Source: Lentisphaeria bacterium
Lineage (GTDB): Bacteria; Verrucomicrobiota; Lentisphaeria; JABSQK01; JAWLHB01
Assembly: GCA_041690595.1 (NCBI GenBank)
Contig: JAWLHB010000057.1
Coordinates: 1 to 45,643, forward strand
Direction of reading: 5' to 3'
DNA: 45,643 nucleotides
Of this stretch, positions 6,174 to 45,643 are shown in pieces (positions within the stretch are counted from its first letter, which is position 1; the number at the start of each line of letters is the position of its first letter). The notes below the pieces were generated by a model that had not been told where the DNA came from, did not search any database, and worked only from the letters and a program-made list of their open reading frames with translations. The position numbers and the translations under genes are program-made.

Positions 6174-6212
6174 GGCACGTTGCGGGGCCTGTCGAGGCTG
6201 AGCGTTTGAAGT
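6174..6212. repeat. Dispersed copy of the ~40-bp motif CAC(G/A)TTGC(C/G)GGGC(C/A)TGTCGAGGCT
   Basis: Matches the tandem pair at 6580-6660 when read directly. Confidence 0.6.
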
Positions 6213-6579
6213 TGAGCCTTAACAGAGGGATGGGCAAGGGCTTTGGGCTTTGACCACAAAGAACGCAGAGAGCGCAAAGCTCGAGCAGAGGGGACGCGGG
6301 GACGCCGTTCGGAGAGCGCCTCACTGACAGGTCCCGTAAAATTGAGCTCAGGCGGGCAGGAGTGTACGCCGTGGACGCAACCCCAAATGGGGTTGATGCG
6401 TGGGCGGGCAGTATACCCAGGGTAGCCCCAAGGGCAGCCCTGGACTATGAGACGCAGCCCCGTTGGGGCTAGGGCGAAAAGAGACGCCGGTTTCTGCGAA
6501 ATTGAGCTCAAGCGGGAGGATTGCATTGGTTTCGACTTATGAAGAAAAATGTCCGGCCAACGGCCGGGAGGGGACGCCC

Positions 6580-6660
6580 ACATTGCCGGGCATGTCGAGG
6601 CTAAGCCGGTGGGATAGCTATCACGTTGCCGGGCCTGTCGAGGCTGCACAGGTGGGATTA
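6580..6660. repeat. Tandem direct repeat (~40 bp x2) of the same motif, in the long intergenic region upstream of tRNA-Ala
   Basis: cacattgccgggcatgtcgaggctaagccggtgggata / cacgttgccgggcctgtcgaggctgcacaggtgggatta. A second short motif, AAATTGAGCTCA(G/A)GCGGG, is also present twice (about 6340 and 6501). Confidence 0.7.
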
Positions 6661-6770
6661 TTCTCGAACAGAAGCGTCAGGGCAACGAATAGCCGGGGAA
6701 CGGGTTGAAAAAAAGTGGATCGGGGTTGTTGAAAGTGTGGAGTGGGCGAGTAGTGTATAGGCGTTTTGGC

Positions 6771-6846
6771 GGGGCTGTAGCTCAGTTGGTAGAGCGATTG
6801 GTTCGCAATCAATAGGTCAGGGGTTCGACTCCCCTCAGCTCCACCA
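6771..6846 (+). tRNA. tRNA-Ala (anticodon CGC)
   Basis: Cloverleaf folded by hand. Acceptor stem GGGGCUG/CAGCUCC with the G3:U70 alanine identity pair. Anticodon loop UUCGCAA. T-arm AGGGG-UUCGACU-CCCCU. CCA is encoded. Confidence 0.93.
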
Positions 6847-25545: not shown

Positions 25546-26973
25546 TCACGCATGACACCAATCGCGATAGACCTTGAGGACACCCTGCTGCGCGCAGGCG
25601 TTGCGGATAATGCCGGCGGCGCGTGTCGGCGGCACGAAAAGGAAGTGGCAAGCCTCGGTGAGCACACGGTTGTTCTGCAGGCGGGGCAACGCGGCCAGGA
25701 TGGCGCGCCCACGCTGGCAGAGGGCCGGATCGGCATGGAGAAAGCCACTGGCAAAGAGTAGTGGAACGGCCAGGTTGACGATGAGATCGTTGATGCGCGA
25801 CTCGCCCAGAAGGGCGGCGGGCTTACTCAACTGGCGGGTAAAGTCATAGAAGGGATGGTAGATCTCGCTATCGCCGCGGGCAAAGAGGTCGCGCAGCCGC
25901 TGCAGGGCGTGCGCCGGATCGTCGTCGCCGCTCATGACATCGATCAGCGCCTGGCCGGGACGATGGCGCGTGGCCACGAGGAAGAGCCAGGCAGCCAGTA
26001 CCCGCCGTTCCGGAGCATTGTAGGGGCGCATGCGCTGACGATTCCAGCGGATGGGGCGCCAGCTTTTGTGGTGCGGCCACCATGCTTGCCAGAGGCGCCG
26101 CAGCCAGAAGCGATGCTGATCGAGCACGGGCTGCTGGGAAGGATCCGGCAGCAGCCCACCGGCGCCCAGGAGCATGGCCAGGCCGGTCTCGTTATCGACC
26201 TGAGCGAGTCGCTCCAGCGGGAGAGCGTCGGCAAGTTGGGCAAAGGGTTCGCGATTGCTCTTGTAGCCCATGGCGTCGAGGAGGCGGGTATAGACGGTCT
26301 GCTCAAGGCCGGACGCGGTAATCTCGGCGCAGATGCGCTGTGCCTTGTGGAGGATGTGGGCGATGCCGTATGACTGAAAGAGGTCGCGCAGGAAGCCGTC
26401 GTTCATGTGGGCGATGGTCTGGGCCAGTTCGCCTGGCGGAACCTGCCGGGCGTAGGGGTAGGCGGTGAGATTGATCGTGTCGATGATCTCCGCGAGGGGT
26501 CTGTCGATGCACGTCTCGAGGGTGATGAGTGGAATGCCAAGCGGGTATTCGCGATGCCCATGGGGATTGTTCCAGACGACGTGGAGCACGACGTTGTCGT
26601 AGTCGCGGTTGTGCTGGTGGTGGTGCTGCGTCCATTGCTCGGGCTGGTGATGGATCTCGATGCTTCCGCGGCGCATGACGCCATCAACGACGATGACGGC
26701 ATCATGAAAATCCGGCCCGCTCTCGACGTTCCAAACGCCGCGATGGATGACGCGCAGATCCTGTCCCGCCACGCTCCGCAGGCTCTCGTGAACCAGCTGT
26801 TCGTTCCAGATCGCCTGCAGGAGCTTCTCCTGGAAGTAGGCTTCCTGCGGCTCGAAGAGAAAGAGACCTTCGCCGAAGAGGAGGGAGTAGAAACCATCCA
26901 GCGGCGTGGATGGTAAGACTGTTTCAGTTGATTTCACCGTGTGCCCGCAATAGTTTACTGGGTGATCAGCCAT
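25546..26973 (-). CDS. DUF2851-family protein (start uncertain, probably an internal non-ATG start)
   Basis: …LLQAIWNEQL…GPDFHDAVIVVDG…HGHREY… resembles DUF2851 as recalled. Confidence 0.5.
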   Translation of the reverse strand: MADHPVNYCGHTVKSTETVLPSTPLDGFYSLLFGEGLFLFEPQEAYFQEKLLQAIWNEQLVHESLRSVAGQDLRVIHRGVWNVESGPDFHDAVIVVDGVMRRGSIEIHHQPEQWTQHHHQHNRDYDNVVLHVVWNNPHGHREYPLGIPLITLETCIDRPLAEIIDTINLTAYPYARQVPPGELAQTIAHMNDGFLRDLFQSYGIAHILHKAQRICAEITASGLEQTVYTRLLDAMGYKSNREPFAQLADALPLERLAQVDNETGLAMLLGAGGLLPDPSQQPVLDQHRFWLRRLWQAWWPHHKSWRPIRWNRQRMRPYNAPERRVLAAWLFLVATRHRPGQALIDVMSGDDDPAHALQRLRDLFARGDSEIYHPFYDFTRQLSKPAALLGESRINDLIVNLAVPLLFASGFLHADPALCQRGRAILAALPRLQNNRVLTEACHFLFVPPTRAAGIIRNACAQQGVLKVYRDWCHA

Positions 26974-27006
26974 TGTGTTTCAATCCTTTAAGCGAGGAAC
27001 CCTGCT

Positions 27007-28416
27007 GTGCGTCCACTGCGATACCTGTTCTGCCTGTTGGCCGCGTCGTGCTTTGGCACGGCACTGGCACAAGATACGAACGGCACCGGCGCACCGTCCG
27101 GCACCGACAAACGGTCCAGTCGCCAGACGCCGGTTACGAACGCCGTGGCCAAAGCCCTCCCATCGGTTGTGAATATCAGCACGGAGCGGATAATCTCGCA
27201 ACAATATCGCAGATATGGCTCCAATGATCCCTTTTCTGACTTTTTCAATCAGTACTTTGGCCCTTCAGAACGCCATTACAAGACCAATTCTCTGGGCAGC
27301 GGGGTGATCATTGACTCGTCGGGTTTGATCATCACGAATGACCATGTCGTGCAGCGGGCGTCGCGAATCCTGATCACTCTCGCCGATGGCACCAATCTGG
27401 AAGCAACGCCCGTCGCCACCGACGAGAAGAACGATCTCGCCCTCCTTCGCATCAATGAAGTGCCTCCCAGCCTGAAGCTGGTTGCCATCGAATTTGCTGA
27501 GCCGGATGATCTGATCCTCGGCGAGACGGTGATCACCGTCGGCAATCCCTTCGGGCTCGGGCAAAGCGTCGCAGCCGGAGTTCTCAGCGCGATCGGCCGG
27601 AAAGCGATTCATGAAGGCGACATTCTCTTCGACGACATCCTGCAGACGGATGCCGCCATCAACCCCGGCAACAGCGGCGGGCCGCTGGTCAATGTCAACG
27701 GCCAGATGATCGGCATTAACCTGGCGATTCAGCGCGATGCGGAAGGTATCGGCTTTGCGATACCGCTGAGGCGCATCGAGGACATCGTCTGCCACTGGCT
27801 GATACCCGAGCGATTCAATCAAGCCGACCTGGGGCTGGTGCCAGGCACCCGAAGTGCAAGCCCCGGCCAGGTTCAGGCCATCGTGGTCGAAGTGCGCCCG
27901 GAGAGTCCTGCCGCAAAGGCCGGGCTCAAGGAGGGCGATGTCATTCTTCGCGTCGATGGTGAAGAGGTGCAGCAGGGGCTGGTGGTCAGTCGACATCTCT
28001 GGCACCTGCAACCGGGCAAGAGCGTGAGCCTGGCGCTGGCCGACGGGCGTACTCTGGAAATCACGCTGGAGGTAATGCCCCGCCTGAGTGGTCCCGAGCT
28101 GGCGCGAGAGAGGTTGCAGGTCGAACTGCAGGAGCTGACCCCACGCCTCGCGAGCGCGCTCAAGTTGCCCTACTCCCGCGGACTGGTGGTGACCGACATC
28201 GAGGAGAAGGGAGTGCTCGGCCGCCGGGGCGTGATCAAGGGCGACGTCATCATTCAGGCCGGCGAAGTACCCGTCTCGGATTTCGGAGATTTCGCGCTGG
28301 CATTCGAGCATGTTCACGATGGCGATGTGATCGAATTGGTGGTGGATCGGGTGGTGGAGCGAGCGCGACATTACTTTTTACAGAGATTTGTTGTGGATAT
28401 CCCTTTCAGGCTGTGA
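27007..28416 (+). CDS. Periplasmic serine endoprotease DegP/HtrA family with two PDZ domains
   Basis: Signal peptide. Catalytic-triad motifs (TNDHVV, DLALL, GNSGGPLVN). GTG start. Confidence 0.9.
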   Translation: MRPLRYLFCLLAASCFGTALAQDTNGTGAPSGTDKRSSRQTPVTNAVAKALPSVVNISTERIISQQYRRYGSNDPFSDFFNQYFGPSERHYKTNSLGSGVIIDSSGLIITNDHVVQRASRILITLADGTNLEATPVATDEKNDLALLRINEVPPSLKLVAIEFAEPDDLILGETVITVGNPFGLGQSVAAGVLSAIGRKAIHEGDILFDDILQTDAAINPGNSGGPLVNVNGQMIGINLAIQRDAEGIGFAIPLRRIEDIVCHWLIPERFNQADLGLVPGTRSASPGQVQAIVVEVRPESPAAKAGLKEGDVILRVDGEEVQQGLVVSRHLWHLQPGKSVSLALADGRTLEITLEVMPRLSGPELARERLQVELQELTPRLASALKLPYSRGLVVTDIEEKGVLGRRGVIKGDVIIQAGEVPVSDFGDFALAFEHVHDGDVIELVVDRVVERARHYFLQRFVVDIPFRL

Positions 28417-28453
28417 ATTCGTTGCTATGTTAGGGTAACGGGAGATAGATACT

Positions 28454-28756
28454 GTGTTGAACCGAACCGCCTTGGCCATCCTGCTCTTCAGCTTGTTGGT
28501 TGCATTTGGCGCTTACCTTCTGGTTCCGACCATAAGTGAGCACCAGAAGACGAACCATGAATTGCAGCAGGCCAACCGCAAGCTGCTCGAGCACAAGGAA
28601 GAGAATCAGAAGCTGCGCAGCGAAATCCAGATGTTGAACAGTGACGCGCGTACCATCGAACGGGTGGCGCGAGACAAGTTCGGCTACGTCATGCCCAACG
28701 AGACGGTTTACGACTTCACCAAGCCCCTCCCCGCGCCGAAGCCTCGCATCCAGTAG
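28454..28756 (+). CDS. Cell division protein FtsB/DivIC-like (septum formation initiator)
   Basis: 100 aa with one N-terminal TM helix, a coiled-coil, and a C-terminal …RVARDKFGYVMPNETVY motif. Confidence 0.6.
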   Translation: MLNRTALAILLFSLLVAFGAYLLVPTISEHQKTNHELQQANRKLLEHKEENQKLRSEIQMLNSDARTIERVARDKFGYVMPNETVYDFTKPLPAPKPRIQ

Positions 28757-28793
28757 ACGCCGCCACATCGCGACAAGATCTGCTACTGATCGT

Positions 28794-28825
28794 TGAGCCA
28801 GCGCCGGCACTCGCCAACGCTGGCT
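28794..28825. terminator. Possible bidirectional hairpin between convergent ftsB-like and serA genes (9-bp stem GAGCCAGCG/CGCTGGCTC)
   Basis: Read directly. No clear U-tract on either strand. Confidence 0.3.
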
Positions 28826-28848
28826 CATGAAGTCAGCCTGCTCCCGGC

Positions 28849-30420
28849 TCAGATCTGCAGGTAAACGGCCTTTACAAAACCATCATGGGCAAGAATCTCG
28901 CCCAGAGCCTGATCGCTCACTGCCTTGTTGACCTTGAGTACCGCGAGCGAATTGCCGGTGCGAGGGTCGTGCGGTGAACGTATGTCTTCGATATTGACAT
29001 CATTGGCCGCCATGACCGACGTGATCTTTGCCAGCATTCCCGGACGATCGTTGTAGACAACGAGGACGCTGTGACCGGTGGGCTCGAAATAGAGCCGATC
29101 GAAGTTGTTGATGCGCGAGACCATGATGGCACCTTCCGCAATCGTACCGCGCACGCTGACACTGCTGAAGCTCTGGTCCTTACCTTCCAGCAGGTCGATG
29201 GTGATGGAGTTGCCATAGCCCTTGCTTTCGTCCGCCCCGCGGCTGACATGGGTGATCCCTTTCTCGCCCAGATAGTCGGTCGCCTGCTGATAGTCGAAGA
29301 ATGGGTCGAAATTGCTGGCCAACCCGAGCACGACAGGACCGAGCAACCAATTCTCGAACTGATTCAGATCGCCATAGAAGCTGGTCTCGATACGGCGCGG
29401 CTGTACCCCCTTCCCGAGGTAACCGCGGGCGATGCGGGTAAGATAGTAGGCCAGGAGCTGGTAGTTCTCGCTGAGACCTTCCGGAATACCGCGATTGACG
29501 ACGCAGGTGCTGATGCCGCGCTCGAAATAACCGACCAGTTGATCCGCCGCCCGCTTGGCGGCATTGAAGTTCGCTTCCTGCGTGTTGGCGCCAAGATGCG
29601 GCAACATGATGTCGGCGACATCCGCGACGCTCTTGGGGCCCGCTTCATCCTTGGGATAGACGTCGTTGCAGTAGATCAGCGACTTCGTCGCCTTGACGCT
29701 GCGAAGATCGGCCTCGTTGACCACGCCCGCGCGAGCGCAGTTCACCAACATGGCCCCGTCCTTCATCTGCTCCAGAACCGTCTTGTTGATCATGCCGCGC
29801 GTCTCCTCCGTCTCCGGAAGATGCAGAGACACAACGTCCGACCGCCCGAAAAGGTCGCTCAGCGTGCAAAGCTCGACATTGAGTTCTTCGGCGCGTCTGC
29901 TCGACAGAATGGGATCATAGGCGAGCACGGTCAATTCGAAGCCGTTCAGGCGCTTGACGAGGAGCTGCCCGATGTTACCGAGGCCGACGATGCCGATTGT
30001 TTTTCCGGCAAGCTCGCGCCCCATCAGCTTCTTCTTCTCCCACCCGCCGGCGCGAGTCGTCTGATCGCCGCGCACGACATGCCGGTAAGCGGCAAGAATG
30101 AGGGCGACCACCTCTTCGGCAACGGCGTTGGCATTGGCGCCCGGGGTGTTCATGACATCGACGCCCTGGCGCCTGGCGTGCTTGATGTCGATGGTGTTGA
30201 AGCCGGCGCCGGCGCGCACGACAAGGCGAAGATTGGGCAGCGCATCGAGGATGGCCTGGTCCACCTTTTCACTGCGGACGATGACAGCGGTGGTCTCTGG
30301 ATGACGCGCCACCAGCTCTCCAATAGGAGTGTCGGCATCCTGCACAACATCGTAGCCTTGGGCACGCAGGGTATCCGCCGCAACGGCATCCAGCTTTGTC
30401 GGGATCAGTACTTTACGCAT
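28849..30420 (-). CDS. serA: D-3-phosphoglycerate dehydrogenase with C-terminal ACT domain
   Basis: MRKVLIPTKLD… start chosen; the track ORF extends further upstream. NAD-binding motif GIVGLGNIGQ. 524 aa. Confidence 0.88.
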   Translation of the reverse strand: MRKVLIPTKLDAVAADTLRAQGYDVVQDADTPIGELVARHPETTAVIVRSEKVDQAILDALPNLRLVVRAGAGFNTIDIKHARRQGVDVMNTPGANANAVAEEVVALILAAYRHVVRGDQTTRAGGWEKKKLMGRELAGKTIGIVGLGNIGQLLVKRLNGFELTVLAYDPILSSRRAEELNVELCTLSDLFGRSDVVSLHLPETEETRGMINKTVLEQMKDGAMLVNCARAGVVNEADLRSVKATKSLIYCNDVYPKDEAGPKSVADVADIMLPHLGANTQEANFNAAKRAADQLVGYFERGISTCVVNRGIPEGLSENYQLLAYYLTRIARGYLGKGVQPRRIETSFYGDLNQFENWLLGPVVLGLASNFDPFFDYQQATDYLGEKGITHVSRGADESKGYGNSITIDLLEGKDQSFSSVSVRGTIAEGAIMVSRINNFDRLYFEPTGHSVLVVYNDRPGMLAKITSVMAANDVNIEDIRSPHDPRTGNSLAVLKVNKAVSDQALGEILAHDGFVKAVYLQI

Positions 30421-30517
30421 TATGTAGTCCATATCATGCTGAAGGTTGGTCTTGCGATCGCTACACCATTCCCTACTGCCAGGCTGTAGCACGACCTGGC
30501 TGGCCCCCACCCGTAGA

Positions 30518-32260
30518 TCACTGACTGTCTTCCTCAAGATACGGGACGACAATGCTATACTGCTTGGCCAGTCTCTCGATCTCCTGGCGGGTCGCTGCAT
30601 CGTTCCGAACAGTCCACTCCGCGATGAGGTGGTAGATCTTCTGCGCGGCCCAACGGGTCGCCAGTTCCCCCTTGGCGGTGCCGGCTTCCGACAGATCGGC
30701 GGTTACCACCAGCTCCTCTTCCTTACCCTCGCGGTTGAGGCCGATGACCTGGATGCCCAATGTCTCGGTCCCCTTGGGCACTCGACCGTATACGGTCAAC
30801 GGATGCCCCCGGAAAAGGTGCTGCAACTGCCGTGGATAAATATCCTCCTGGACCTCACCCGTCACCTGACACCGGGGGTCGGCAACGATGATGTCCGTCA
30901 ACCCGCCAACATAACCGGTGAGCTGCGTAACCGTATTGTCGAGCTTCTCCGCGTGGACGCTGAGGCCGCGGTTTCTGTAGGAGAGGAAGTTCATCAGAAA
31001 CATGTTCGCTTCCTTGCCGGCACTGAAGGAGAAGATCGACGCATTGGCGCGATTCTCGCTGCTGACGCGCCGGATGAAGGCGTTGTTGGCAAGCTTGTGC
31101 CCCGTGGTGGTGAGCCCGTCACTAAGCATGAAAATCAGGTAGGGACGGCTCTCGTCCGTGCGTTCGATCGCGATGTATGGCGCCAGGCCGGCATAGACAT
31201 CCGTCTTGCCCCGCGACTTGAGCTGCTTCAGAAATTCGCGGGCTGCTTCGACACTCTCGGGCGTAACGGGCCGAAGCCGGTCGAAGAGCGGCCTTGGCTC
31301 TTCGCGGAAAGCGACGACGTCGAACCGATCCTCCGGCTGCAGATAGTCAAAAGCCTGATCCAGACCATTCCGAAACTCGCGCAGCTTCTCCCAGCCGATA
31401 CTGGCGCTGGAATCCACCAGGAAGAGCACATCCTTCGGGATGGTCACCAGGCGGTCGGCCTTTTCGTTCGGCATGATCGTGATCTCCACGTAGCCATCAG
31501 CCGTCTGCTCATCCCAGTAGACGGCCACGTCCACCTGCATCAGGGAATCCAGCACATTGGCTTCGGGGCTGATAAGCTCCGGCTTCGTCTGGGTAATGGA
31601 TTTGGGCAGCTCCGGCCGTTTCACCACGGGCAGCGGCGGCAGTTCAGTCGGCCGTCTGGCTGGCAGCTTGAGGCGCATGCCCAGCTCGACCGCTTCCGGT
31701 TGCCCGAGGCCAGTCCCGCCAGGGCTGGTTGACGTGATCGATGGCACGACAGATTCCGTCAGCAGCTTGCGCTCGATCTCCGGGATGATCTGCCGCTCGC
31801 TCATTGCCCGCGTCGGCGGCAACTCACGGGCGCGTATCGACAGGATCTCCGGCGGCGGTGAGCTCATGGGAGCCGTGCCGATAGACTCGTTCGACTTCTT
31901 CTTCGGGATCGCCACCACCTTTTTGAGCAGATCCCTGCCCAGCCCCGTAAGCTGCGGTTTGAGTTCCGGCTTCACCTGGTCGACAAGCTTCTCCTGCTCG
32001 AAGAGCTTGTGCAGGCGCTCCTCCTGTTGATCCAGAATCCGCTTCTTGCTCTCCGTGCGCGGCAGCAGGGGCGGCTTCACCAGCTCATCGAGGTCAATGG
32101 AGCGTACCGTCACCTGCTGCGACGGCCGGTCGATCGCCTTTGCTGGCGTAAAAAGCGGCACTTCCATATGCGAGGCAACCTGCCACAGCAGAGCGTGTAT
32201 CAGCAGTGAAACCACCACCGAGACCAGCAGGAAATACCCAGTCTGTCCATTATCATTCAT
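30518..32260 (-). CDS. Membrane-anchored von Willebrand factor A (VWA) domain protein with a Pro-rich linker
   Basis: Start chosen at MNDNGQTGYFLL…, with Shine-Dalgarno GGAGAGGG upstream. One N-terminal TM helix. VWA region …VLFLVDSSASIG… (MIDAS-like DxSxS). Confidence 0.65.
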   Translation of the reverse strand: MNDNGQTGYFLLVSVVVSLLIHALLWQVASHMEVPLFTPAKAIDRPSQQVTVRSIDLDELVKPPLLPRTESKKRILDQQEERLHKLFEQEKLVDQVKPELKPQLTGLGRDLLKKVVAIPKKKSNESIGTAPMSSPPPEILSIRARELPPTRAMSERQIIPEIERKLLTESVVPSITSTSPGGTGLGQPEAVELGMRLKLPARRPTELPPLPVVKRPELPKSITQTKPELISPEANVLDSLMQVDVAVYWDEQTADGYVEITIMPNEKADRLVTIPKDVLFLVDSSASIGWEKLREFRNGLDQAFDYLQPEDRFDVVAFREEPRPLFDRLRPVTPESVEAAREFLKQLKSRGKTDVYAGLAPYIAIERTDESRPYLIFMLSDGLTTTGHKLANNAFIRRVSSENRANASIFSFSAGKEANMFLMNFLSYRNRGLSVHAEKLDNTVTQLTGYVGGLTDIIVADPRCQVTGEVQEDIYPRQLQHLFRGHPLTVYGRVPKGTETLGIQVIGLNREGKEEELVVTADLSEAGTAKGELATRWAAQKIYHLIAEWTVRNDAATRQEIERLAKQYSIVVPYLEEDSQ

Positions 32261-35214: not shown

Positions 35215-36579
<1,365 letters not shown>

Positions 36580-38422
36580 CGGCCCCTTCCACCAGCCAGC
36601 GCACCTGATAAGGGCCCAGCGGCACGCTCCCTCCGGCCAGCCTCTCTCCCGTCAGCAGATCCACCGCCCCACCCTGCCCCGCCTCCACCGCGATCAGTCC
36701 CGGCGTCACATTGTGCAGCGCCGTCAGCCGGCGATCTCCCGCCGTCCGGCGCAGCGCGAAGCAGCCGCTGCCCAGCTCCAGCACCTCCTGCTCCGCATCC
36801 GGATGCAGGCAAGGCTCCGTCGCGCGTATCTCCAGCAGGCGGCAGTACTCCGCAAAGACCATCGCCCGCAACGACTCCGGCTCCGCCAGCTCCGCATCCA
36901 GCTCTCCCTCCACCAGTTGCTCCCGGTTGATCGACCGAGCCCGACCGCTCCGCGCCACCCCCGCCAGGTCGTTGCGGCTGCCGAGCAGGCTGTGAATGTA
37001 GATCCCCGGAATCCCGATAAAACTCAGCGGGATCGCCTGCGAAAGCATGAAGCGACGCACCTGCACCGCCATCGGCTCATCGCTGTCCGGATGGTTCACC
37101 GCGTCGAAGTAATTCAGATTCAGCTCGTACGGCGCGATCGAGCCATCCGGATTCCGTTTCCCCGTGATGTCGCCATGATGCTCGCGCGCCAGTTCCAGCA
37201 GCACCTGGCGCTGCTCCTCACTCAGCAGCCCCTCCGTCGGCCGCATGCCGATACCGTCATGAGTCGCCGTGATGTTGAGGTACGTCGCCCCATCGCCCAC
37301 CTTGCGCACCCCCGCCGCCCAAGCCGTCAGGTGCGTCGCATCCCCCACCGCGATCGAAAAGAGAATGAGCGGCGCAAGACTGAAGTTGTAGATCACCTGC
37401 GCCTCGTCCCCACGATCCCCGAAATAGGCCATATTCTCCTCGTGCGGCACATTCGTCTCCGTCAGCAGCAACACATGCGGCGCCACCGCATCCAGCACCC
37501 GCCGCAGCAGCTTGATGATCGCATGCGTCTCCGGCAGGTGCGCACACGAACTCCCCAGCCGCTTCCACAGGTACGGAATCGCGTCCAGGCGAATCATCCG
37601 AGCCCCCCGCGCCGCATAGAACAGCAACACATCCACCATCTCCAGCAACACCGCCGGGTTCTGGTAATTCAGATCCACCTGATCCCGGCTGAAGGTCGTC
37701 CACAGCCAGACCGTCGTCCCATCCCCCTTCCGGTAGTCATGCAGCAGCGGCAGGTTCCGCGTTCGCAGCACGCTCCGCGTATCCGTCTCTGGCGGCAGCG
37801 CGATCGCAAAATTTGCATACCGCGGATCGTCAGCCAGAAAACCGCGAATGTACGCACTCTCCTGTGACACATGATTGATCACCCCATCCACTGCCAGCCG
37901 GTACTCCCGCCCCAGCGCCTCCACCTCCTCCCAGCCGCCCACCTTCTCCTCTACCTCACGGAAATCCACCACCGAAAAACCATCGTCCGAACTCCACGGA
38001 AAGAACGGCAGCAGATGCACAAAACTAACCCGCTTCCCCACATGCCGACGCAGAAACCGGTGCAGCACCGCCAGCGGCACCGCATCCTCCCCCACAATGC
38101 TGTCCGCGTACGTAATCAGCAGCGCGTCCCCCTGGTCCCACCGCCGCTGCTGCACCGGTGGCCCGATCCGCCCGCGATACCCCGCGACCAGCTCCGCCAG
38201 CTCCTTGCTGACACCCGGCGCGCGATCCTCGCCGTACAACATCGCCAGCGTGCGCTCCACCCATTCCCCCAAGCTCTCCTCCATCATACTCTCCTCATCC
38301 CTTGTTGACGCAGCCACTATCGGTAAGCAGGCTACTATATCCCACACCAGCCCCAGGCACACCCCAAACCCGGAACGTCCGGCCCCCGATGCACAGGTGG
38401 TCCCCCGAAATGTTCTCGCCAG

Positions 38423-38698
38423 AAAAGATCGGTCGAAAGGTCGGTCCGTAAAACCTCGGTCCCACTTCCGAAAAGATCGGTCGAAAGGTCGGTCCATCGG
38501 CGCCACCCACTCGCGTCCGTTTCGTCCGTACACATCCCCGTCCCAGGAACGTCACGCCCTCCTGCTGCTGCATCGCTACCTCCCAAAAGATCGGTCGAAA
38601 GGTCGGTCCGCAAAACCTCGGTCCCACTTCCGAAAAGATCGGTCGAAAGGTCGGTCCATCGGCGCCACCCACTCGCGTCCGTTTCGTCAGACACATCC
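38423..38698. repeat. Duplicated ~115-bp element (copy 1 at 38423-38537, copy 2 at 38585-38698). Each copy has two 24-bp AAAGATCGGTCGAAAGGTCGGTCC motifs, giving four GGTCG-AAA-GGTCG direct-repeat sites in total.
   Basis: Read directly. The copies differ at 3-4 positions. Track ORFs 38295..38837 and 38335..38781 come from this repeat and are judged spurious. Confidence 0.85.
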
Positions 38699-39089
38699 GC
38701 GGCGCGCATCCCAAAGGCCATACTTCCCCTATTCCCATCCTTCCCTCTCCCGGGCATCCCACTACCCAAGCACGTTCCCACCCTTCATGACCTCTACATC
38801 TAACTATAAACATACACCCCCATAACCCAAAAGTCAAGCCCTAAAAACAAAAAGAGTACCCTTCCGCCCCGCCTCATGTAACATCCGTCCACGGACCGCG
38901 TCCACCAGGCGCCACATGCTCCGGGCTGCGTAGCTAATGGTTGTCGACAATCCGCTTCACCCCGGCTCGATAGCTGGCCGGGTCGACCGGCTTGCGCGTT
39001 GTCGCGTCAAGCTGCAAGCGTTGCGACTGGATGAGCCAGATAGCGATCCGAATATTGTCTCACCCGCCACACCATGTCCGACTTGTCCG

Positions 39090-39165
39090 ACTCGTCCGAC
39101 CACAGACCACCCCGCCTCCCCAGCGGGGACCGGGGCAGCTCCCCACCGATGGTCTCGCGTCCGCC
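39090..39165. repeat. REP-like GC-rich palindromic repeat, copy 1 (…ctcgtccgaccacagaccaccccgcctccccagcggggaccggggcagctcccc…)
   Basis: Shares the core CCTCCCCAGCGG(G/A)G(A/T)CCGGGGCAGC with the copies near 43011, 44289 and 44793. Lies immediately 3' of the 1251-aa gene. Confidence 0.75.
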
Positions 39166-39169
39166 CTCG

Positions 39170-42100
39170 CTACTCTCCTTCCCCAGTCTCCGCGGGAATG
39201 GGAACTGCCCGTAGCCCAGTTGTCGAGCAACGTTCACGGTCCCATGTGAAGAAGCATTCGGCTTCAACGGCAATCTCGCTCTCGTCTTGATTGGTCGAGT
39301 AAATAACGCGCGTGCCATTGCTTTGCAGCCAATCCTTCACCCCACCTGCCGTGCCACGCAAAAACGAGTCAGTCGATGCCAACAGCTCCCCCCATCCTGG
39401 TCGTTCGAGGGTGATCCTCTCGATAGCTCCGCTGGTTCCGACGAAGTCAATCCTGTATAGACCGATAATCTCATCCACTTGCCAGTTGAAGCCATTGGGT
39501 GCGGATATCGAAAACCCACTTTCCGGGTCCTCCACCACTGCCTCTTCCGGCAGCAACTGCAAGCGCTTCGTCCGTCCCCAGAAGACCCAGGCACGGGCAG
39601 CACTTATGCAAATGTCGACAATACTGGCACGTACGCTGTCACGCGTCGGAACGCCAACCTCAGGATGAAACGCAAAGTCAACCGTGGATGAGGCGATCCC
39701 CTGCCCCAACAACCTGTACTCCCTGCCCTCAAAATCGGCACGTTGCAGGCCCAGCGTCGCCGAATTCTCTGCAAGTATCAGCTGCTCTCCCTGCCAAAGC
39801 TCCACTCCTGGACCAATCGAGATCGAGTAGCTCCCTTCAGTAGACGCAGGCATATAGCTGTCGAAGTGAATACTGCCTGCCGTATTGGTCGCGATCAGCG
39901 CCCCATACAGCTCTTCGTTCAAGTCGCTCAGCCGATTCCCGGTGCCGTCGAAAATCGTCACGTCGACACCGATCACCGTGACCACCAGCTTCCCTCCCTG
40001 CGGCGTTGTCACCGTGTACTCCCCCGGATGCAGCCCCACAAAGCGGCTGCCATCATAATTGCCGACCCAGGCCGTACTCTCCGCGCACTCTATCCAGGCA
40101 GGAATACTCAGCACGTGGCGCTCCGTCCACGGCTCGCCCGAATCCCATTGGCCATTGCTGTTCAGATCCAGATACTCCGATTCCACCGGATCTCTCACGC
40201 CATTCAAGGGAATCGCACTGCACTCATACCACACGTTCGCCTGAACAGGCAATTCCTGCCCGGGCTGCACATACGGCGTGGCGCAGCCGATGATCACCCC
40301 GATCTGCTTGAGGCTGACGTCAAGATGGACATCGTCACCGGCTCCACCACCTGCGCCTCCTCGGTCGACGTTCATAGCGGCCAATGCCCCTTGTACCTGC
40401 TTCAGTTCTTCCACCGTTCCGAAGCGGTTGCTCCAGACCTCTCCCGTCGTCGTTCCATCCAGCCACAGCCGCAGCGTCTCCACCTTTTTCTTCTGCTCGT
40501 GAAGATCGCTGATCTTCTGGGCCGTGAAGGTTGCCCTCACCGGGGCGGACTCGTTGCCGGCACGGTCGACGGCCACCACCTCCACGGTGCATGTCTCGCC
40601 TTCCGTCAGGCCACTGATTGTTCTGGTGTTGACCACCGCGGCATCCTGCGGTTCGCCATTCACCTTATACTGCACGGCGTCCAACGAAGGTGATGGCAGC
40701 CACATGGCGACGCCGCCGACTGCATCAACCGACGGATACGCATGCAGGGGGCCTGGGGGCTCCGGAGGCGTGGTGTCCTTGCCGTAATACAGACGGCTCC
40801 ATGTCACATTCTCCGCACTGTCCTCCAGCATCACAAAAACGTAGTGAAGCCCTTCTTCAGCATCGAGATCCACGGATACGGGCCCTGGTTCGTCAAGGAT
40901 GTACGCATAGGTAGCAGGGTCCGAATAGTGCGTGATTGTGAGCGTGTAGGGCGGCAGCCCTCCACCAATGCTGCCGCTCAGACATACCTTGTCGCCCGAC
41001 GTCCAGAACAACGAGTCGGGCTCAGCTCCGTCGAGAACGAGACGCAGCTCGTCCTGATAGAGGAATGGCAACGACGCCTCACCCCATTCTGTCGAGACCA
41101 CCACGTCGACTGTCCCAGGCGCACAAGCTGGAGACAAAGCCTTCATCTCTCCACGGTGCAGCAAACTCACCTCTCGTGCTGGAACGCCGCCAAAGGTTAC
41201 GGCTGTCTCGCCAGTGAACCACGATCCGGAAAGGGTTATCCATTTGCCTCCACTGGCAGTGTCGAAAGCTGGCTGCACCTGCACCAGCGTCGGAGGCCGC
41301 GGAACGGCAATATCAAACCTGCTGACCGCACTGGTCACGTTTCCCGCCACATCCTTGGCCAGGATGAACAGGCTGTAGGTACCGTTCTCCCAATCCATCG
41401 CAGGCGTGTACGTTAGCTCTCCATTCTCCAGTGTGGGCGTGAGTTCCCCAATCGGATCGACGGACAAGCTGACGGATTCCAGCGCGATTCCACTAAGCTC
41501 ATCGGCAAGTCGTGCCCGAATAGTCGGACGCGAAGTCGTCAGTTCGGCTCTGTTGGCAGGAAAGAGCACCTCCAGTTCCGGAGGCGTCAGATCGAGCTTC
41601 ACCTCGACAGTCGATGGCTCTTCCTCATTGCCATGCAGATCGATACTGTAGAAGGTCAAGGTATGCAGGCCTTCTGTCTGGATGATGGCATGGACGCCCG
41701 TCTCCATGGCTCCACCATCGATGCTGAAGCGAGTCATGGCCAAGCCGAATTCATCTGTCGCCGACAGGATAATGAACGCCGATTCCGAACTCCACTGCCC
41801 ATCATGCTCATAGTCATGCACGGTCACTGGTGGAGTCGTATCGGGTGGGTCCATCTGGTCGAAGGCAAAGACGACCGCCCCGGGAATGGCGATCCTTTCA
41901 CTGAAGTGGGTACCTCCGGCATACTCTACACCGAACGTCACTTCAGGATGCGTCTCTGCCTCCACTCTGAAGCGCGCAATGCCTTCTCCGTTCGTTAGTT
42001 CCTCCATGCCAAGATAGGTGCTCTTGCTCGCATCCCACATCTGAACCACACGACCAGCGACCGGCTGATCGATCGCGGTAATCCTCACCGTCGTCAACAC

Positions 42101-42925
42101 TGGAGTATCCAGCACCGTTGATTCGGGCGCAGTGAGCACGTCGGTCCAAAGATCGATCCCACTCTCCTCGTGATCCACAAGCCGCAGCTTCACCGCGACC
42201 CCGGGGGAAACGTAGAACACCGCCTTCCCAGCGACAGTGGTCCGTCGCTCCTGGCCGAGGAAGATGCTCCCCGTTTCGTCCCAAAGCTGCACGCGACAAT
42301 CCCGCATCGACGCGCCGCCAGATGTGATCGTGACACACACCAGCGACAAGGCGGTAAGACCCTCTGCCGGAACTCCGGTCGAATCGGCCGCGAGGGGAAT
42401 GCTCGCGCATACACTCGCCGGTGCCGTAACGATGTCCGTGAAAAAGTGCCGCCCGGCATCCGTGACACGAAAGCGAAAGCGCTCATCCGCCGCGACCGGG
42501 AAGGATACCTCACCTGCCGTATCGCTCACCAGTCGCTCGCCCAGATAGGCCTTTCCCGATTCATCCCATAGCTCAACGATCCGTCCTCCCGCCGGTTGAT
42601 CCCCCCAGACAAGCGTGAGCACGGAACCGACAGGCAGGTCAATCGTGCCGCTTTCGTTTGCGGTCAGCAGCGGCGTCCAGAATGCGATCCCGCAATAACG
42701 CGTGCAGAATTTCAGCGATCGATCGGGAGCAAGGTCGAAGACTGCTCGTCCATCCCCTCCGGTCATCTCCGCAACTCCCGCAAAGACGCCGTCTTCACCA
42801 TACCCAAAGACAAATGCATTCGGACAGGGCTCGTTATCCACCCTCACCGTGATCGTCACCGGCCCTGCGTTTACACATCTCCATCCAACCAGAATCAGAA
42901 CCAGAATGGCTATCCTCATCACCAC
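39170..42925 (-). CDS. Large secreted multidomain cell-surface protein (tandem CarD/Cna-B-like modules, OmpL47-type/Ig-like and IPT/TIG-like domains)
   Basis: 1251 aa. N-terminal signal peptide. About three ~110-aa N-terminal repeats (…AGGRIVELWDESGKAYLG… / …RVQLWDETGSIFLG… / …RVVQMWDASKSTYLG…). A DGQW…YSIDLHGNEE… OmpL47-like motif. An IPT-like segment. Confidence 0.7.
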   Translation of the reverse strand: MVMRIAILVLILVGWRCVNAGPVTITVRVDNEPCPNAFVFGYGEDGVFAGVAEMTGGDGRAVFDLAPDRSLKFCTRYCGIAFWTPLLTANESGTIDLPVGSVLTLVWGDQPAGGRIVELWDESGKAYLGERLVSDTAGEVSFPVAADERFRFRVTDAGRHFFTDIVTAPASVCASIPLAADSTGVPAEGLTALSLVCVTITSGGASMRDCRVQLWDETGSIFLGQERRTTVAGKAVFYVSPGVAVKLRLVDHEESGIDLWTDVLTAPESTVLDTPVLTTVRITAIDQPVAGRVVQMWDASKSTYLGMEELTNGEGIARFRVEAETHPEVTFGVEYAGGTHFSERIAIPGAVVFAFDQMDPPDTTPPVTVHDYEHDGQWSSESAFIILSATDEFGLAMTRFSIDGGAMETGVHAIIQTEGLHTLTFYSIDLHGNEEEPSTVEVKLDLTPPELEVLFPANRAELTTSRPTIRARLADELSGIALESVSLSVDPIGELTPTLENGELTYTPAMDWENGTYSLFILAKDVAGNVTSAVSRFDIAVPRPPTLVQVQPAFDTASGGKWITLSGSWFTGETAVTFGGVPAREVSLLHRGEMKALSPACAPGTVDVVVSTEWGEASLPFLYQDELRLVLDGAEPDSLFWTSGDKVCLSGSIGGGLPPYTLTITHYSDPATYAYILDEPGPVSVDLDAEEGLHYVFVMLEDSAENVTWSRLYYGKDTTPPEPPGPLHAYPSVDAVGGVAMWLPSPSLDAVQYKVNGEPQDAAVVNTRTISGLTEGETCTVEVVAVDRAGNESAPVRATFTAQKISDLHEQKKKVETLRLWLDGTTTGEVWSNRFGTVEELKQVQGALAAMNVDRGGAGGGAGDDVHLDVSLKQIGVIIGCATPYVQPGQELPVQANVWYECSAIPLNGVRDPVESEYLDLNSNGQWDSGEPWTERHVLSIPAWIECAESTAWVGNYDGSRFVGLHPGEYTVTTPQGGKLVVTVIGVDVTIFDGTGNRLSDLNEELYGALIATNTAGSIHFDSYMPASTEGSYSISIGPGVELWQGEQLILAENSATLGLQRADFEGREYRLLGQGIASSTVDFAFHPEVGVPTRDSVRASIVDICISAARAWVFWGRTKRLQLLPEEAVVEDPESGFSISAPNGFNWQVDEIIGLYRIDFVGTSGAIERITLERPGWGELLASTDSFLRGTAGGVKDWLQSNGTRVIYSTNQDESEIAVEAECFFTWDRERCSTTGLRAVPIPAETGEGE

Positions 42926-43010
42926 GCTACTCCATCAATAGATGTCGCAGTTTGCAGATCCCTTTGCTACTATAGCGACACCTGCGGTCGCAGACCAGCA
43001 GAGTATCGAG

Positions 43011-43062
43011 TGGTCTGGGGAGGTGCTGCCTCCCCAGCGGGGTCCGGGGCAGCGCTCCGCGC
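43011..43062. repeat. REP-like palindromic repeat, copy 2 (GGTCTGGGGAGG-tgctg-CCTCCCCAG hairpin plus a GGGGC-agc-GCTCC hairpin)
   Basis: Read directly. Nearly identical to copy 4. Confidence 0.8.
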
Positions 43063-43098
43063 GTCGTGCAGATAGAAAAAGATGCTGCAAGCCGCACA

Positions 43099-43659
43099 TC
43101 AGGCCGAACTGCTCAACTTGCGCATTGCATGAATGAATCCAGCAGACAGAAGCACAACATTTCCACTACTGTAGGAAACAGCATCGTCCATGCCCCTATA
43201 TATACATCGACATACCGAAGCTACACTTCGAAACATCTCCAACCTTCCAACACCACGACGGTCCTTTTTACTAACCACCTCGAACACCAGCGAGCATCTT
43301 GGCAATAGCACGGACTTGAACTGCTCCCAAAAAGATGGCGAAACAATGATGAACTGCTCGTCTCTTCCATCATCAAGCACAATCCACTCCTTTGGCGTCA
43401 GAAAAGCCAATCCTCCTCCAAGCTCTATTAAAGACGGATTGCGTTCACCTTGTGGCGCATTTTCCCCGAAGACTATCTCACCACGGTTTCCAAACAGGCC
43501 GCGAAACTCAAACGTAGCCACCGCCACATCATCTGAATACCACGTAAACCGATGTTTCCTGAAAACCACAACATACTTATCCCGGCAATCCACGGGTAAG
43601 CATCCAGCCTCAACCTGAAACACCGTGAAAAGAAGATTAGCATGTATGCTCAGAAACAT
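43099..43659 (-). CDS. Hypothetical cytoplasmic protein in the lower-GC islet
   Basis: 186 aa with no recognisable family. Local GC is visibly lower than its surroundings. Confidence 0.45.
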   Translation of the reverse strand: MFLSIHANLLFTVFQVEAGCLPVDCRDKYVVVFRKHRFTWYSDDVAVATFEFRGLFGNRGEIVFGENAPQGERNPSLIELGGGLAFLTPKEWIVLDDGRDEQFIIVSPSFWEQFKSVLLPRCSLVFEVVSKKDRRGVGRLEMFRSVASVCRCIYRGMDDAVSYSSGNVVLLSAGFIHAMRKLSSSA

Positions 43660-43718
43660 CTGTTTATCCTGCTGATCATGTCAGAAACAATCAAGGGAAG
43701 TCATGAAGCCTTGACGTT

Positions 43719-44198
43719 TTAGCAAGTCATACACGTACTCCGCCTAACCTTGATCAACGTATACCCAAACAAGAATCCCCCGGCACCGAGCAGAAGATAC
43801 ACAGTGCAGTCGCCAATCCAAAATGGATCGGCAAGTACTACCAGCGCTACGGGAGGAGATTGGCTCAGCCAAAGCGCCAGGTAAAATGCAAGGCCCTTGG
43901 CTATCCAAAGGGAGAACGACAAGGTGACGCATATCAAGAACACGGCAACTATGGACTCGAGAGGATTCCTGAGCAAATACACCACCATCGCCGAGTTAAT
44001 GAAGATGACAAATAGCAGCAGATATCCAGAAAGCTCAAGCGGAACCTCAAATCCCAAGACAAGGAGCTCAACATCGCCTGGGCCGAGACGGAACCTGCTC
44101 ACAAACAAACCGAGCCATGCGATCACATACAACACGTGAACCGCCAGTTCGACCATAGCTGCCATAAGTAGTCTGGTCATCGTCATTCCAAGCGCCAT
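43719..44198 (-). CDS. Hypothetical integral membrane protein (4-5 TM helices) in the lower-GC islet
   Basis: 159 aa, strongly hydrophobic. Sits 59 nt upstream of the 186-aa gene on the same strand. Confidence 0.5.
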   Translation of the reverse strand: MALGMTMTRLLMAAMVELAVHVLYVIAWLGLFVSRFRLGPGDVELLVLGFEVPLELSGYLLLFVIFINSAMVVYLLRNPLESIVAVFLICVTLSFSLWIAKGLAFYLALWLSQSPPVALVVLADPFWIGDCTVYLLLGAGGFLFGYTLIKVRRSTCMTC

Positions 44199-44288
44199 TC
44201 TTTATTCAAGATTGTAGCTGCTTCGGCTGTCACTGACTTGCGTTGACATCGCCAACCATTCTCTCCGCCCCTTCCGACCCCGGCCGCC

Positions 44289-44365
44289 TCGTCCGACCAC
44301 AGACCACCTCGCCTCCCCAGCGGAGTCCGGGGCAGCGCCCCGCCGATCGTCCCCACGTCCCGTCC
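44289..44365. repeat. REP-like palindromic repeat, copy 3
   Basis: …ctcgtccgaccacagaccacctcgcctccccagcggagtccggggcagcgccccgccgatcgtcccc…. Confidence 0.75.
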
Positions 44366-44369
44366 GATT

Positions 44370-44720
44370 TCATTCCAGATTGAAGCCGCAGCGACGGCAC
44401 CGCTTTGGCCAACTCCCGATGAACCCCAGTGCTCTCTGGCAGGAAGGACATCTATAATTCCTCGTGTAGATAAAACTGGTGCATATGATCACTACCAAAG
44501 TGACCGCAATGCCGATGTATAACTCACCCATGATCATCTGCATCTTGGTCTCAATATCGGATTGATCGACAAAAGTCCAGTACAGAGCAAACATGCTCTG
44601 CGCGACCATAAGCAAAAGAGGAATCGTCGCCACAAGCATGCAGTTCCTCTTCCGCCTCTTCCAGATGCGTCTCAGGTCATCATCTTCCTCATTTCTCACT
44701 TCTGTTTCCACGCCAGACAT
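44370..44720 (-). CDS. Small membrane protein with C-terminal CxxC…CxxC zinc-ribbon
   Basis: 116 aa. Two hydrophobic helices, then CPSCQRALGF…CRRCG. Confidence 0.45.
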   Translation of the reverse strand: MSGVETEVRNEEDDDLRRIWKRRKRNCMLVATIPLLLMVAQSMFALYWTFVDQSDIETKMQMIMGELYIGIAVTLVVIICTSFIYTRNYRCPSCQRALGFIGSWPKRCRRCGFNLE

Positions 44721-44792
44721 CCTCGTCGCTGAGTTTCAACCCTACACTGTAGTCATCAGCATCATCGCTTGTCAAGCAACAAGACGTATCGA

Positions 44793-44880
44793 GGGGTCTG
44801 GGGAGGTGCTGCCTCCCCAGCGGGGTCCGGGGCAGCGCCCCGCCGATCGTCCCCGCGTCTCCGCGTCCCCGCGTCTCCCT
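44793..44880. repeat. REP-like palindromic repeat, copy 4
   Basis: …ggtctggggaggtgctgcctccccagcggggtccggggcagcgccccgccgatcgtccccgcgtctccgcgtccccgcgtctccc…. Confidence 0.8.
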
Positions 44881-44983
44881 TCACCGTCTCTTCATGCAGG
44901 CTTAACCGTTGGGCGCTCCGAAGCGGCGCCACGTCGACTACACTATAAGCAACACGAAAAGCATGAGACACAAGGAGACCAGT

Positions 44984-45469
44984 ATGACAACCAGAGACCA
45001 TCAGGTGCGGGAGCTCATCAGCCAGTTCCAGGAGCTCTTCCCGCCGGTACATTCACTCGACCTCGGCTTCCGCGATTGCGCCTGCCGCCTCTACTCCAAC
45101 GCCCCGCCCCTCCTCGACAAGCTGCGGCTCCATTACCACGGCTGCATCGCCGGCCGCGCCTCCCCGGAGCTGCTCATCACCCTCCTGCAGACGCCGCCCT
45201 TCCTCCTCGACGACGCCTACGACATCAAGCTCGCCGGCAGACGCGGCCCCACCATCGGCGGCGACGCCGTCGACGACCTCGATGGGCGACTCATCCACAA
45301 CCGCGAGTGCGGCATGCTCGCCCTGCTCGACAGCAACCGCTTCCTGATCATGGGACCGGGCCTGGAGAAGACCAGTGTCATCATCGACTTCATTTACGGC
45401 GTTTATCACCTCTGGCTCTGCCGGAAGTTGAGACAAAGCCAGTCGGCGCCCTGCCCGCAGTTGCCGTAA
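44984..45469 (+). CDS. Hypothetical protein (start chosen at ATG 44984, which has an AAGGAGA Shine-Dalgarno)
   Basis: 162 aa, no family recognised. The overlapping 335-aa track ORF 44593..45600 is Arg/Pro-rich, spans the repeat, and is judged spurious. Confidence 0.4.
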   Translation: MTTRDHQVRELISQFQELFPPVHSLDLGFRDCACRLYSNAPPLLDKLRLHYHGCIAGRASPELLITLLQTPPFLLDDAYDIKLAGRRGPTIGGDAVDDLDGRLIHNRECGMLALLDSNRFLIMGPGLEKTSVIIDFIYGVYHLWLCRKLRQSQSAPCPQLP

Positions 45470-45643
45470 AGAGCGCGCCATTCTCGACACGCCCGGCAAG
45501 GCGGGAGGGGTTCTCCGAACCGCGACTTGCGCTTTGCCATCTCTCCAACTATGTATGCCTTCAAGTGTTCATGGCTAAAAGATCTCCAGATTTTTTGTGA
45601 ATGGCTGCGACGAGTGCGTCAATAAAATGTTGATAACTCTGGT

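Follow-up and report, generated by a model that had tools for sequence, protein, structure and literature searches.

The 45,643-nt window analysed here, which is the whole of contig JAWLHB010000057.1 in GenBank assembly GCA_041690595.1, carries near one end four copies of a GC-rich double-hairpin repeat. We conclude, with a probability of roughly 55%, that this repeat is a dispersed hairpin element resembling repetitive extragenic palindromic (REP) sequences and bacterial interspersed mosaic elements (BIMEs), the copies of which have decayed to various degrees and mark the gene boundaries of an accessory islet. The copies belong to one family by sequence, have a modular anatomy, are restricted to the islet within the contig and lack the features of an integron, and this reading draws as well on their mosaic structure, in which two types of arm share junctions with a common core. 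Four matches to a 27-nt core, none with more than one mismatch, lie on the + strand (39115-39141, 43029-43055, 44312-44338 and 44812-44838), whereas no match was expected from 100 shuffles of the sequence, which bears out the four same-strand copies reported in a first-pass annotation. The cores are spaced 3914, 1283 and 500 nt apart and all copies are direct. A covariance model of the element, applied to the entire window with filters off, returned only the same four sites (next-best E >0.4), and sub-motif searches of the window revealed no fifth copy. The copies are as follows:

39077..39162, + strand, repeat copy 1, type A (covariance model 14.2 bits, module 2 only)
43003..43067, + strand, repeat copy 2, type B, a complete double module (76.4 bits)
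44273..44360, + strand, repeat copy 3, type A (21.6 bits)
44786..44890, + strand, repeat copy 4, type B (78.4 bits; 96% identical to a Roseomonas locus, L001)

The anatomy of the element was determined from an alignment and from pairwise BLAST of the copies. The intact element, which corresponds to type B, consists of two tandem modules, each composed of a GGGGT head and a GC-rich hairpin. Module 1 reads GGGGT-CTGGGGAGG-TGCTG-CCTCCCCAG and is followed by a single C, and module 2 reads GGGGT-CCGGGGC-AGC-GCCCCG, after which this lineage has a right extension of ~25-45 nt. Copies 2 and 4 have 65 nt in common at 92% identity, and copies 1 and 3 have 88 nt in common at 84% identity, including a left arm of their own, CTCGTCCGACCACAGACCACC. 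Type A keeps the 3' half of hairpin 1 together with module 2, and its left arm meets the common core at the identical point in copies 1 and 3, which is the loop of hairpin 1. Copies 1 and 3 descend from one ancestral copy in which another sequence took the place of the hairpin-1 5' arm, with the exchange at the loop. The stretch common to all four copies spans only ~31-40 nt, and the right extensions are unevenly shared: copies 1 and 4 match to 39190 and 44890, copies 3 and 4 match to 44359 and 44859, and copy 2 hardly takes part. The copies are therefore not uniform, with two left-arm types (A in copies 1 and 3, B in copies 2 and 4) and right extensions of unequal length.

Copy 4, which reads GGGGTCTGGGGAGG-TGCTG-CCTCCCCAG C GGGGTCCGGGGC-AGC-GCCCCG plus the right extension, is the sole copy unchanged from the family consensus. 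In copy 2, the first head is GTGGT and stem 2 contains a G-T pair, while the second heads are mutated to GGGGA in copy 1 and to GGAGT in copy 3. Copy 1, in which two pairs of stem 2 are broken, combines the CTCGTCCGACCACAGACCACC left arm with the 3' half of hairpin 1 (CCTCCCCAG), a module 2 that is degraded (GGGGACCGGGGCAGCTCCCCA) and a right extension; weaker similarity to copy 4 extends as far as 39190, across the stop codon of a 1251-aa open reading frame (ORF). As would be expected of decaying copies, heads and stems in copies 1-3 are disrupted by point changes. The repeat had also been described as two adjacent perfect hairpins, but one of these, CCCC-AGC-GGGG, has only 4 bp and bridges parts of two different modules. 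The hairpins that are conserved in relatives are CTGGGGAGG/CCTCCCCAG and CGGGGC-AGC-GCCCCG. The first of these depends on the left arm that only copies 2 and 4 possess, and copies 3 and 4 alone have the second in perfect form.

Relatives of the element are present in other bacteria. Roseomonas sp. GC11 (L001) contains a 50-nt stretch 96% identical to copy 4, which lies between convergent genes for a luciferase-like oxidoreductase and a Uma2-family protein and features an extended second stem and a T-run. The full double module was recovered at 90-92% identity from loci L006/L017, L011 and L031, and L006/L017 were identified as Roseomonas via protein clusters at 90% identity. In L031, a metagenome contig with a GC content of 0.61, ~85 nt are common with the window, including the right extension, and the element, oriented to its neighbour as in the window, abuts the stop codon of a gene on the minus strand. 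Further GGGGT-headed hairpins, unlike in stem sequence and of either orientation, are present nearby in L006, L011, L021, L039, L050 and L051, and such mixed-orientation neighbourhoods are the pattern of REP/BIME clusters. As REP sequences are short, imperfect and extragenic palindromes, it is relevant that all four window copies lie in spacers and that the relatives are intergenic too. The loci represent a GGGGT-headed REP-like family common to Roseomonas and at least two other lineages, with 90-96% identity.

A search with hairpin 1 alone returned 51 metagenome loci with GC contents of 0.37-0.73, which, where gene calls were clean, were mostly intergenic and near gene 3' ends. Many of these loci are probably independent families that share a stable stem of a G-run and a C-run. 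The hairpin loci have no protein family in common, and neither the repeats nor 20 related loci matched an Rfam family. Viral contigs scanned for the core and the type-A arm gave no matches, a plasmid search gave only 30-nt matches at chance level in Cereibacter, and a literature search on the sequence strings of the repeat turned up only papers on human G-quadruplexes. The host of the contig was placed through its sugar phosphorylase, the named relatives of which (57-60% identity) belong mostly to the Planctomycetes-Verrucomicrobia-Chlamydiae (PVC) group, and for this reason the host probably belongs to a different phylum from Roseomonas. Around the closest relatives of the phosphorylase (65% identity), synteny is not conserved and the loci are without the repeat.

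Three sets of observations were made alongside these searches. Orthologous luciferase-like oxidoreductase genes on the Roseomonas-like contigs L001 (5499-6521) and L004 (2359-3381) both have the hairpin 3' of the gene. Relative to the gene, the GGGGT head is on one side in L001 and on the other in L004, suggestive of a local inversion or an independent insertion in the same spacer. A family of low GC content (0.41-0.48; L007, L014/L032, L015/L033, L018, L022, L023, L026, L046 and L053) has the same hairpin, GGGGTCTGGGGAGG...CCTCCCCAG, followed in most loci by an A-run and, ~25 nt on, by a conserved AAATGG-N5-TTTTGGTGCAT; the hairpin is often preceded by another, GGGAGGGGG/CCCCCTCCC, and the family has no Rfam match. 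Finally, L013, L019, L030, L042 and L043 (GC 0.58-0.65; LULE01 contigs and others) have a conserved TTCATAAGTATCCCGGA-like flank before the hairpin and a second, variable hairpin after it. Read on the other strand, the hairpin lies ~15 nt upstream of a possible start codon, and it may belong to the 5' leader of a conserved gene.

Within the contig, the repeats define an islet of ~6 kb near the contig end, flanked by an apparently truncated native gene on one side and the native gene for a sugar phosphorylase on the other. The genes of the islet and its boundaries, with their GC content at third codon positions (GC3), are:

36548..38284, - strand, native sugar phosphorylase gene (P0001), the left boundary, with an 800-nt leader that has tandem repeats of its own
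39170..42925, - strand, 1251-aa secreted protein with Ig-like domains (Big_13, TIG and OmpL47-type), GC3 0.66
43099..43659, - strand, 186-aa ORF, GC3 0.47
43719..44198, - strand, 159-aa ORF, GC3 0.60
44370..44720, - strand, 116-aa ORF, GC3 0.62
44984..45469, + strand, right boundary gene of native composition, GC3 0.88

Native genes have GC3 values of 0.70-0.88, in contrast to the 0.47-0.66 of the four islet genes. Repeats occupy 4/5 spacers of the islet and 0/18 spacers of at least 40 nt elsewhere in the contig (Fisher p = 5.6e-4). The rest of the contig is ordinary chromosomal DNA that encodes encapsulin, RNase R, GH95, a TonB-dependent receptor and HtrA, along with SerA, ProRS, a response-regulator kinase and the sugar phosphorylase. 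Hundreds of copies placed uniformly after ordinary housekeeping genes, with no link to low-GC cargo, would have refuted the first-pass annotation, and in this contig the repeat is instead confined to the low-GC3 islet. Because of this confinement, the "cassette-like" layout proposed in the first-pass annotation reflects a real local association, although not an integron. Its placement of each copy just 3' of a minus-strand gene holds for copies 1-3, which end 8, 32 and 10 nt from the stops of the 1251-, 186- and 116-aa ORFs, respectively. Copy 4, however, lies 3' of no gene: it occupies the divergent spacer between the 116-aa gene (start at 44720) and the + strand gene at 44984-45469, and therefore the further unit that had been assigned to it does not exist. 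A 96-aa minus-strand ORF across copy 4 looks spurious from its sequence, as it traverses the repeat and is antisense to the start of the + strand gene.

The 1251-aa protein has relatives at the level of domains only, and PADLOC and PHROGs returned nothing for the four minus-strand islet ORFs. None of the three small ORFs (186, 159 and 116 aa) has a homologue among 5.8 billion proteins; the 116- and 159-aa ORFs were queried as a concatenation with a 161-aa sequence, for which no matches were returned, self-matches included, and thus these ORFs are probably uncalled in the source annotation. By its sequence, the 159-aa ORF reads as a multi-pass membrane protein, and the 116-aa ORF as a protein with two hydrophobic segments and a putative C-terminal CxxC...CxxC zinc-ribbon; the AlphaFold model of the 186-aa ORF was unusable (pLDDT 40). 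The match of the right boundary gene to HprK-related kinase B (TIGR04355) is confined to the N-terminal third of the kinase: homology ends at about residue 141 of 161, near 45407, and the profile is 351 long. The ~170 nt of DNA beyond 45470 to the contig end have a GC content of 0.51. The gene thus appears to be truncated near 45407, as a native gene interrupted by foreign DNA, and this foreign DNA may be a repeated mobile element at which the contig stops.

If the repeats are REP/BIME-like elements, they would spread or duplicate at the level of DNA, as REP-type elements do, and then decay. The hairpins, at distances of 8-32 nt from the preceding stop codon and 66-78 nt from the following start, would probably act as transcript-end or insulating structures. 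The shared core of 40-65 nt probably provided short homology through which DNA segments could be joined or exchanged as the islet was built up.

Because the repeats flank small ORFs in one orientation, we evaluated whether they form an integron cassette array or a cluster of attC sites lacking an integrase (CALIN). The layout by itself satisfies the spacing rule for a CALIN, which calls for at least two sites on one strand, less than 4 kb apart and without intI (PMC4889954), and the small ORFs without detectable relatives resemble integron cassettes. However, a scripted scan of both strands for RYYYAAC...GTTRRRY pairs 50-150 nt apart found no pair in 38800-45643, and the sole pair of the window (28693-28798) is within coding sequence. 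GTT and AAC triplets are absent from the repeats, in agreement with the earlier statement that these lack GTTRRRY/RYYYAAC core sites, and canonical attC sites are refuted by the absence of R''/R' boxes from the array. The suggested search for an intI-type recombinase likewise came back empty: no plausible gene on the contig, which ends 800 nt past copy 4, has an integrase or tyrosine recombinase domain, and the array is headed by the HprK-related kinase B fragment. At 44899-44915, between copy 4 and the + strand gene, the palindrome GCTTAAC-C-GTTGGGC resembles an attI-type simple site. Such a RYYYAAC-G-GTTRRRY-like palindrome near the array head would favour an integron, but ~0.4-0.8 adjacent RYYYAAC/GTTRRRY pairs are expected by chance per window of such size. 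With neither an attC pair, nor a GTT or AAC triplet, nor a recombinase domain, we reject membership in the integron family, and an integron array or CALIN is extremely improbable. The preference of the first-pass annotation for REP/BIME or RNA hairpins over an integron therefore stands on the absence of attC core sites and integrase and on the Roseomonas relatives, but it does not extend to full REP membership.

We also considered whether the repeats are RNA elements selected by the host, such as terminators or 3'-end stabilising hairpins that were duplicated with the units or selected after them and that have no history as mobile elements. The stop-proximal placement of copies 1-3 is consistent with this explanation, as are the distances of copies 2-4 from the next start codon (78, 75 and 66 nt), the promoter-like site just downstream of copy 4 and upstream of the 116-aa ORF (44775-44746), and the position of the L031 element after a stop codon. 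The Roseomonas copy in L001, with its stem-loop and T-run, resembles a canonical bidirectional terminator. In the window, however, no T-run or U-tract follows the repeats on either strand, and a terminator scan of 38800-45643 identified three sites, none of which is at a repeat. Past the end of the 1251-aa gene, the sole T-run lies at a distance of 250 nt from copy 1, on its far side, and hence the window copies do not qualify as Rho-independent terminators, which combine a stem-loop with a U-tract. Furthermore, the element is antisense to the upstream gene in the window and in L031 but sense in Roseomonas, copies 1 and 3 are without hairpin 1, mutations have broken stems, copy 4 follows no gene, and none of the 18 other spacers of the contig uses the repeat. 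We consider it unlikely that host-selected RNA elements account for the repeats.

The direct orientation of all copies at their observed spacings could also reflect a cassette system other than an integron, in which the hairpin-1 loop is cut by a recombinase whose gene lies elsewhere. Units of the form [B arm-gene-core] would be excised as double-hairpin circles and inserted at a resident half-site, which would generate the order A-B-A-B. The sites look chimeric, with two left-arm types on one core and an identical junction in the hairpin loop, and the 116- and 1251-aa units, if circularised, would each regenerate a complete double hairpin. The low GC3 of the cargo, its lack of detectable full-length relatives and the truncated native gene that adjoins the islet are also in line with such a system. 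Yet no recombinase gene of any kind is present on the 45.6-kb contig, the alternation of A, B, A and B is unlike simple serial insertion at one site, and the middle unit (159 + 186 aa) would bear the half-site type rather than the complete type. In Roseomonas and L031, moreover, the element follows ordinary genes singly, without arrays, and the window copies are decaying, with mutated heads and stems. Taken together, these observations make a non-integron cassette system doubtful at best.

A related idea, which we regard as a long shot, is that the double hairpin is a portable joining site, either as short homology across species or as the target of a hairpin-loop-specific recombinase encoded elsewhere. 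Portable homology is conceivable because the double hairpin is nearly identical in unrelated bacteria, and foreign genes may in this way be stitched into arrays by cassette accretion that is independent of integrons. The loop junction of copies 1 and 3 and the sites that circles of the 116- and 1251-aa units would regenerate are compatible with a portable site and do not prove it.

The arrangement might instead be an artefact, in which a metagenome assembler chained unrelated segments through the shared repeat. The window is an entire contig of a metagenome-assembled genome (MAG), the repeats fall within its terminal 6.5 kb, and repeats lie at or close to both of its ends. The exact stretches shared between copies, however, are just 21-44 nt, which is shorter than the final k-mers that metagenome assemblers commonly use. 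The copies also differ from each other, and GC skew runs through the region without a break (-0.15 to -0.20), all of which makes an artefact very improbable.

Other types of element were tried and set aside. The four copies have no terminal inverted repeats or target-site duplications in pairwise alignments, in which homology ends at differing points, and the contig has no match to a transposase-type family; without inverted termini and duplicated flanks, the copies do not conform to a miniature inverted-repeat transposable element or a transposon remnant. The resemblance to Tn3-type ends is limited to the GGGGTCTG start. Xer/pdif-type modules were discarded because the sites do not resemble dif and the core is direct, without alternation. 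Simple tandem accretion at one att site predicts one boundary arm and identical internal arms, not A-B-A-B. In the type-B copies (44793-44832 and 43012-43049, +), four GGGG tracts (GGGG-TCT-GGGG...GGGG-TCC-GGGG) lie antisense to the genes, and a long-loop G-quadruplex is possible in principle, but the type-A copies are without two of the tracts, and we dropped a G-quadruplex as an explanation, as all four tracts exist only in type B.

Several results weigh against a REP/BIME identity. REPINs (paired REPs that fold into hairpins) and BIMEs are typically inverted pairs (PMC3116915), and neither inverted doublets nor alternating clusters occur in the window, where the copies and both modules are all direct. 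The remaining 39 kb of the contig contain no copy, the exact core is present in only 1 of 185,579 species-representative genomes (Roseomonas sp. GC11) and in no JGI metagenome contig, and these counts therefore give no sign of high copy number, the hallmark of REP sequences, which have tens to hundreds of dispersed copies per genome. No ORF with an HUH motif, which would mark the single-copy Y1/HUH transposase that REP sequences flank, was found within 1.5 kb of the hairpin at the Roseomonas locus or the 51 metagenome loci. The folding energy of the 86-nt regions is mostly no better than that of shuffles (z +1.4 to -2.5). Among seven aligned copies (two from the window and five from other loci), all base pairs form but 13/15 are invariant, and the pairs are therefore evidence for conserved sequence rather than covarying structure. 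A near-identical non-coding 50-mer in an alphaproteobacterium and a probable PVC-group MAG is also unusual for REPs, as parts of the REPIN-RAYT literature (RAYT, REP-associated tyrosine transposase) describe these systems as mostly vertically inherited within lineages.

Elsewhere in the contig, we noted additional repeats and features of composition. Micro-repeats adjoin two of the copies:

39075..39100, + strand, 9-nt tandem micro-repeat (TGTCCGACT x2.9) that runs into the left arm of copy 1
44848..44878, + strand, 8-nt tandem micro-repeat (CGTCCCCG/CGTCTCCG x3.5) that is the right extension of copy 4

The complement of the copy 4 micro-repeat, GGGGACGC, is also found at 6290-6305, where it occurs twice within 6210-6770 (+), a 560-nt non-coding stretch upstream of tRNA-Ala(CGC) (6771-6846) that holds several repeat families, including aaattgagctcaRgcggg (x2) and CACGTTGCSGGGCMTGTCGAGGCTR (x3; 6176, 6579 and 6622). 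The contig starts with a perfect 9-nt tandem array, (GACGCAGTG) x16.4 at 1-148, and GACGC/GGACG micro-repeats related to this array flank copies 1 and 4 and occur at 6290. These micro-repeats seem to recur in the spacers of this genome and are likely to cause assembly breaks. The phosphorylase leader (38285-38840, -) has a promoter-like site at 38837-38809, followed by a 162-nt tandem duplication, of which the copies at 38423-38526 and 38585-38688 are 99% identical and contain two GGACCGACCTTTCGACCGATCTTTT units each. A 180-aa ORF that overlaps this leader looks spurious, and the leader, which has no Rfam match, could be an unrecognised leader or regulatory RNA. GC skew changes from ~+0.15 to ~-0.2 over ~26700-32000 and in the right half is negative even at + strand genes (-0.32 at 35215-36579 and -0.22 at 44984-45469); skew is thus linked to the replication strand and not to the coding strand. 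The contig may span the replication terminus; no E. coli-type dif site was found near the skew switch.

The outcome is mostly housekeeping, in that a false integron lead is removed and a GGGGT-headed REP-like hairpin family is documented. Of mild interest are a non-coding 50-mer that is conserved in sequence, beyond structure, between probably different phyla, and an element that, within the contig, is strictly confined to a small islet of atypical composition with genes that have no detectable full-length relatives. If such elements do join acquired DNA, they would constitute a simple and overlooked route to accessory gene arrays.

Among known systems, the repeats share with the REP/BIME and REPIN-RAYT elements of E. 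coli and Pseudomonas (PMC3116915, PMC3337134, PMC3686654) the form of short GC-rich imperfect palindromes that are only intergenic. They also share a conserved short head at the foot of the hairpin, here GGGGT, hairpin variants clustered in either orientation (the Roseomonas and L021 loci), and isolated copies that resemble decaying remnants. In E. coli, the REP head is GTAG. They differ in that the copies are direct, with tandem modules instead of an inverted doublet, in that no RAYT gene was seen on the contig or in the 1.5 kb around relatives, and in the 90-96% identity between Roseomonas and a MAG of probably another phylum, whereas REP families are usually lineage-specific. Like attC sites and CALINs (PMC4889954), the repeats are same-strand imperfect palindromes less than 4 kb apart after small ORFs mostly without relatives, with chimeric-looking sites and, as in a CALIN, no integrase nearby. 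In contrast to those sites, they have no R''/R' core sites (RYYYAAC / GTTRRRY), no intI gene and no single long bulged hairpin with paired ends, and their relatives elsewhere are single copies after ordinary genes. Rho-independent terminators are similar in being GC-rich hairpins a few nt after stops, and the Roseomonas copy even has a T-run, but the window copies are without a U-tract, two of them are without one hairpin, and the orientation of the element to the gene varies between organisms.

Two mosaic systems provide further parallels. Promoter-stem-loop (PeSL) cassettes are reportedly described by Arbiol et al. in 2010 from hyperplastic regions of T4-type phages. In PeSLs, repeated hairpin motifs in one orientation flank small orphan genes and are thought to aid modular shuffling via short homology, and the window likewise has repeated hairpins in one orientation that flank small genes without known relatives. 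PeSLs are AT-rich, occur in phage genomes and carry a defined early promoter, whereas our repeats contain no promoter and lie in the context of a bacterial chromosome. In Neisseria intergenic mosaic elements (NIMEs), dRS3 repeats flank RS blocks to form mosaics near surface-protein and accessory genes, where they serve as sites of recombination and insertion; NIMEs are very abundant in the genome, and a recombinase-bearing phage targets dRS3. The sequences are unrelated to ours, but both systems consist of mosaic intergenic repeats built from interchangeable short blocks.

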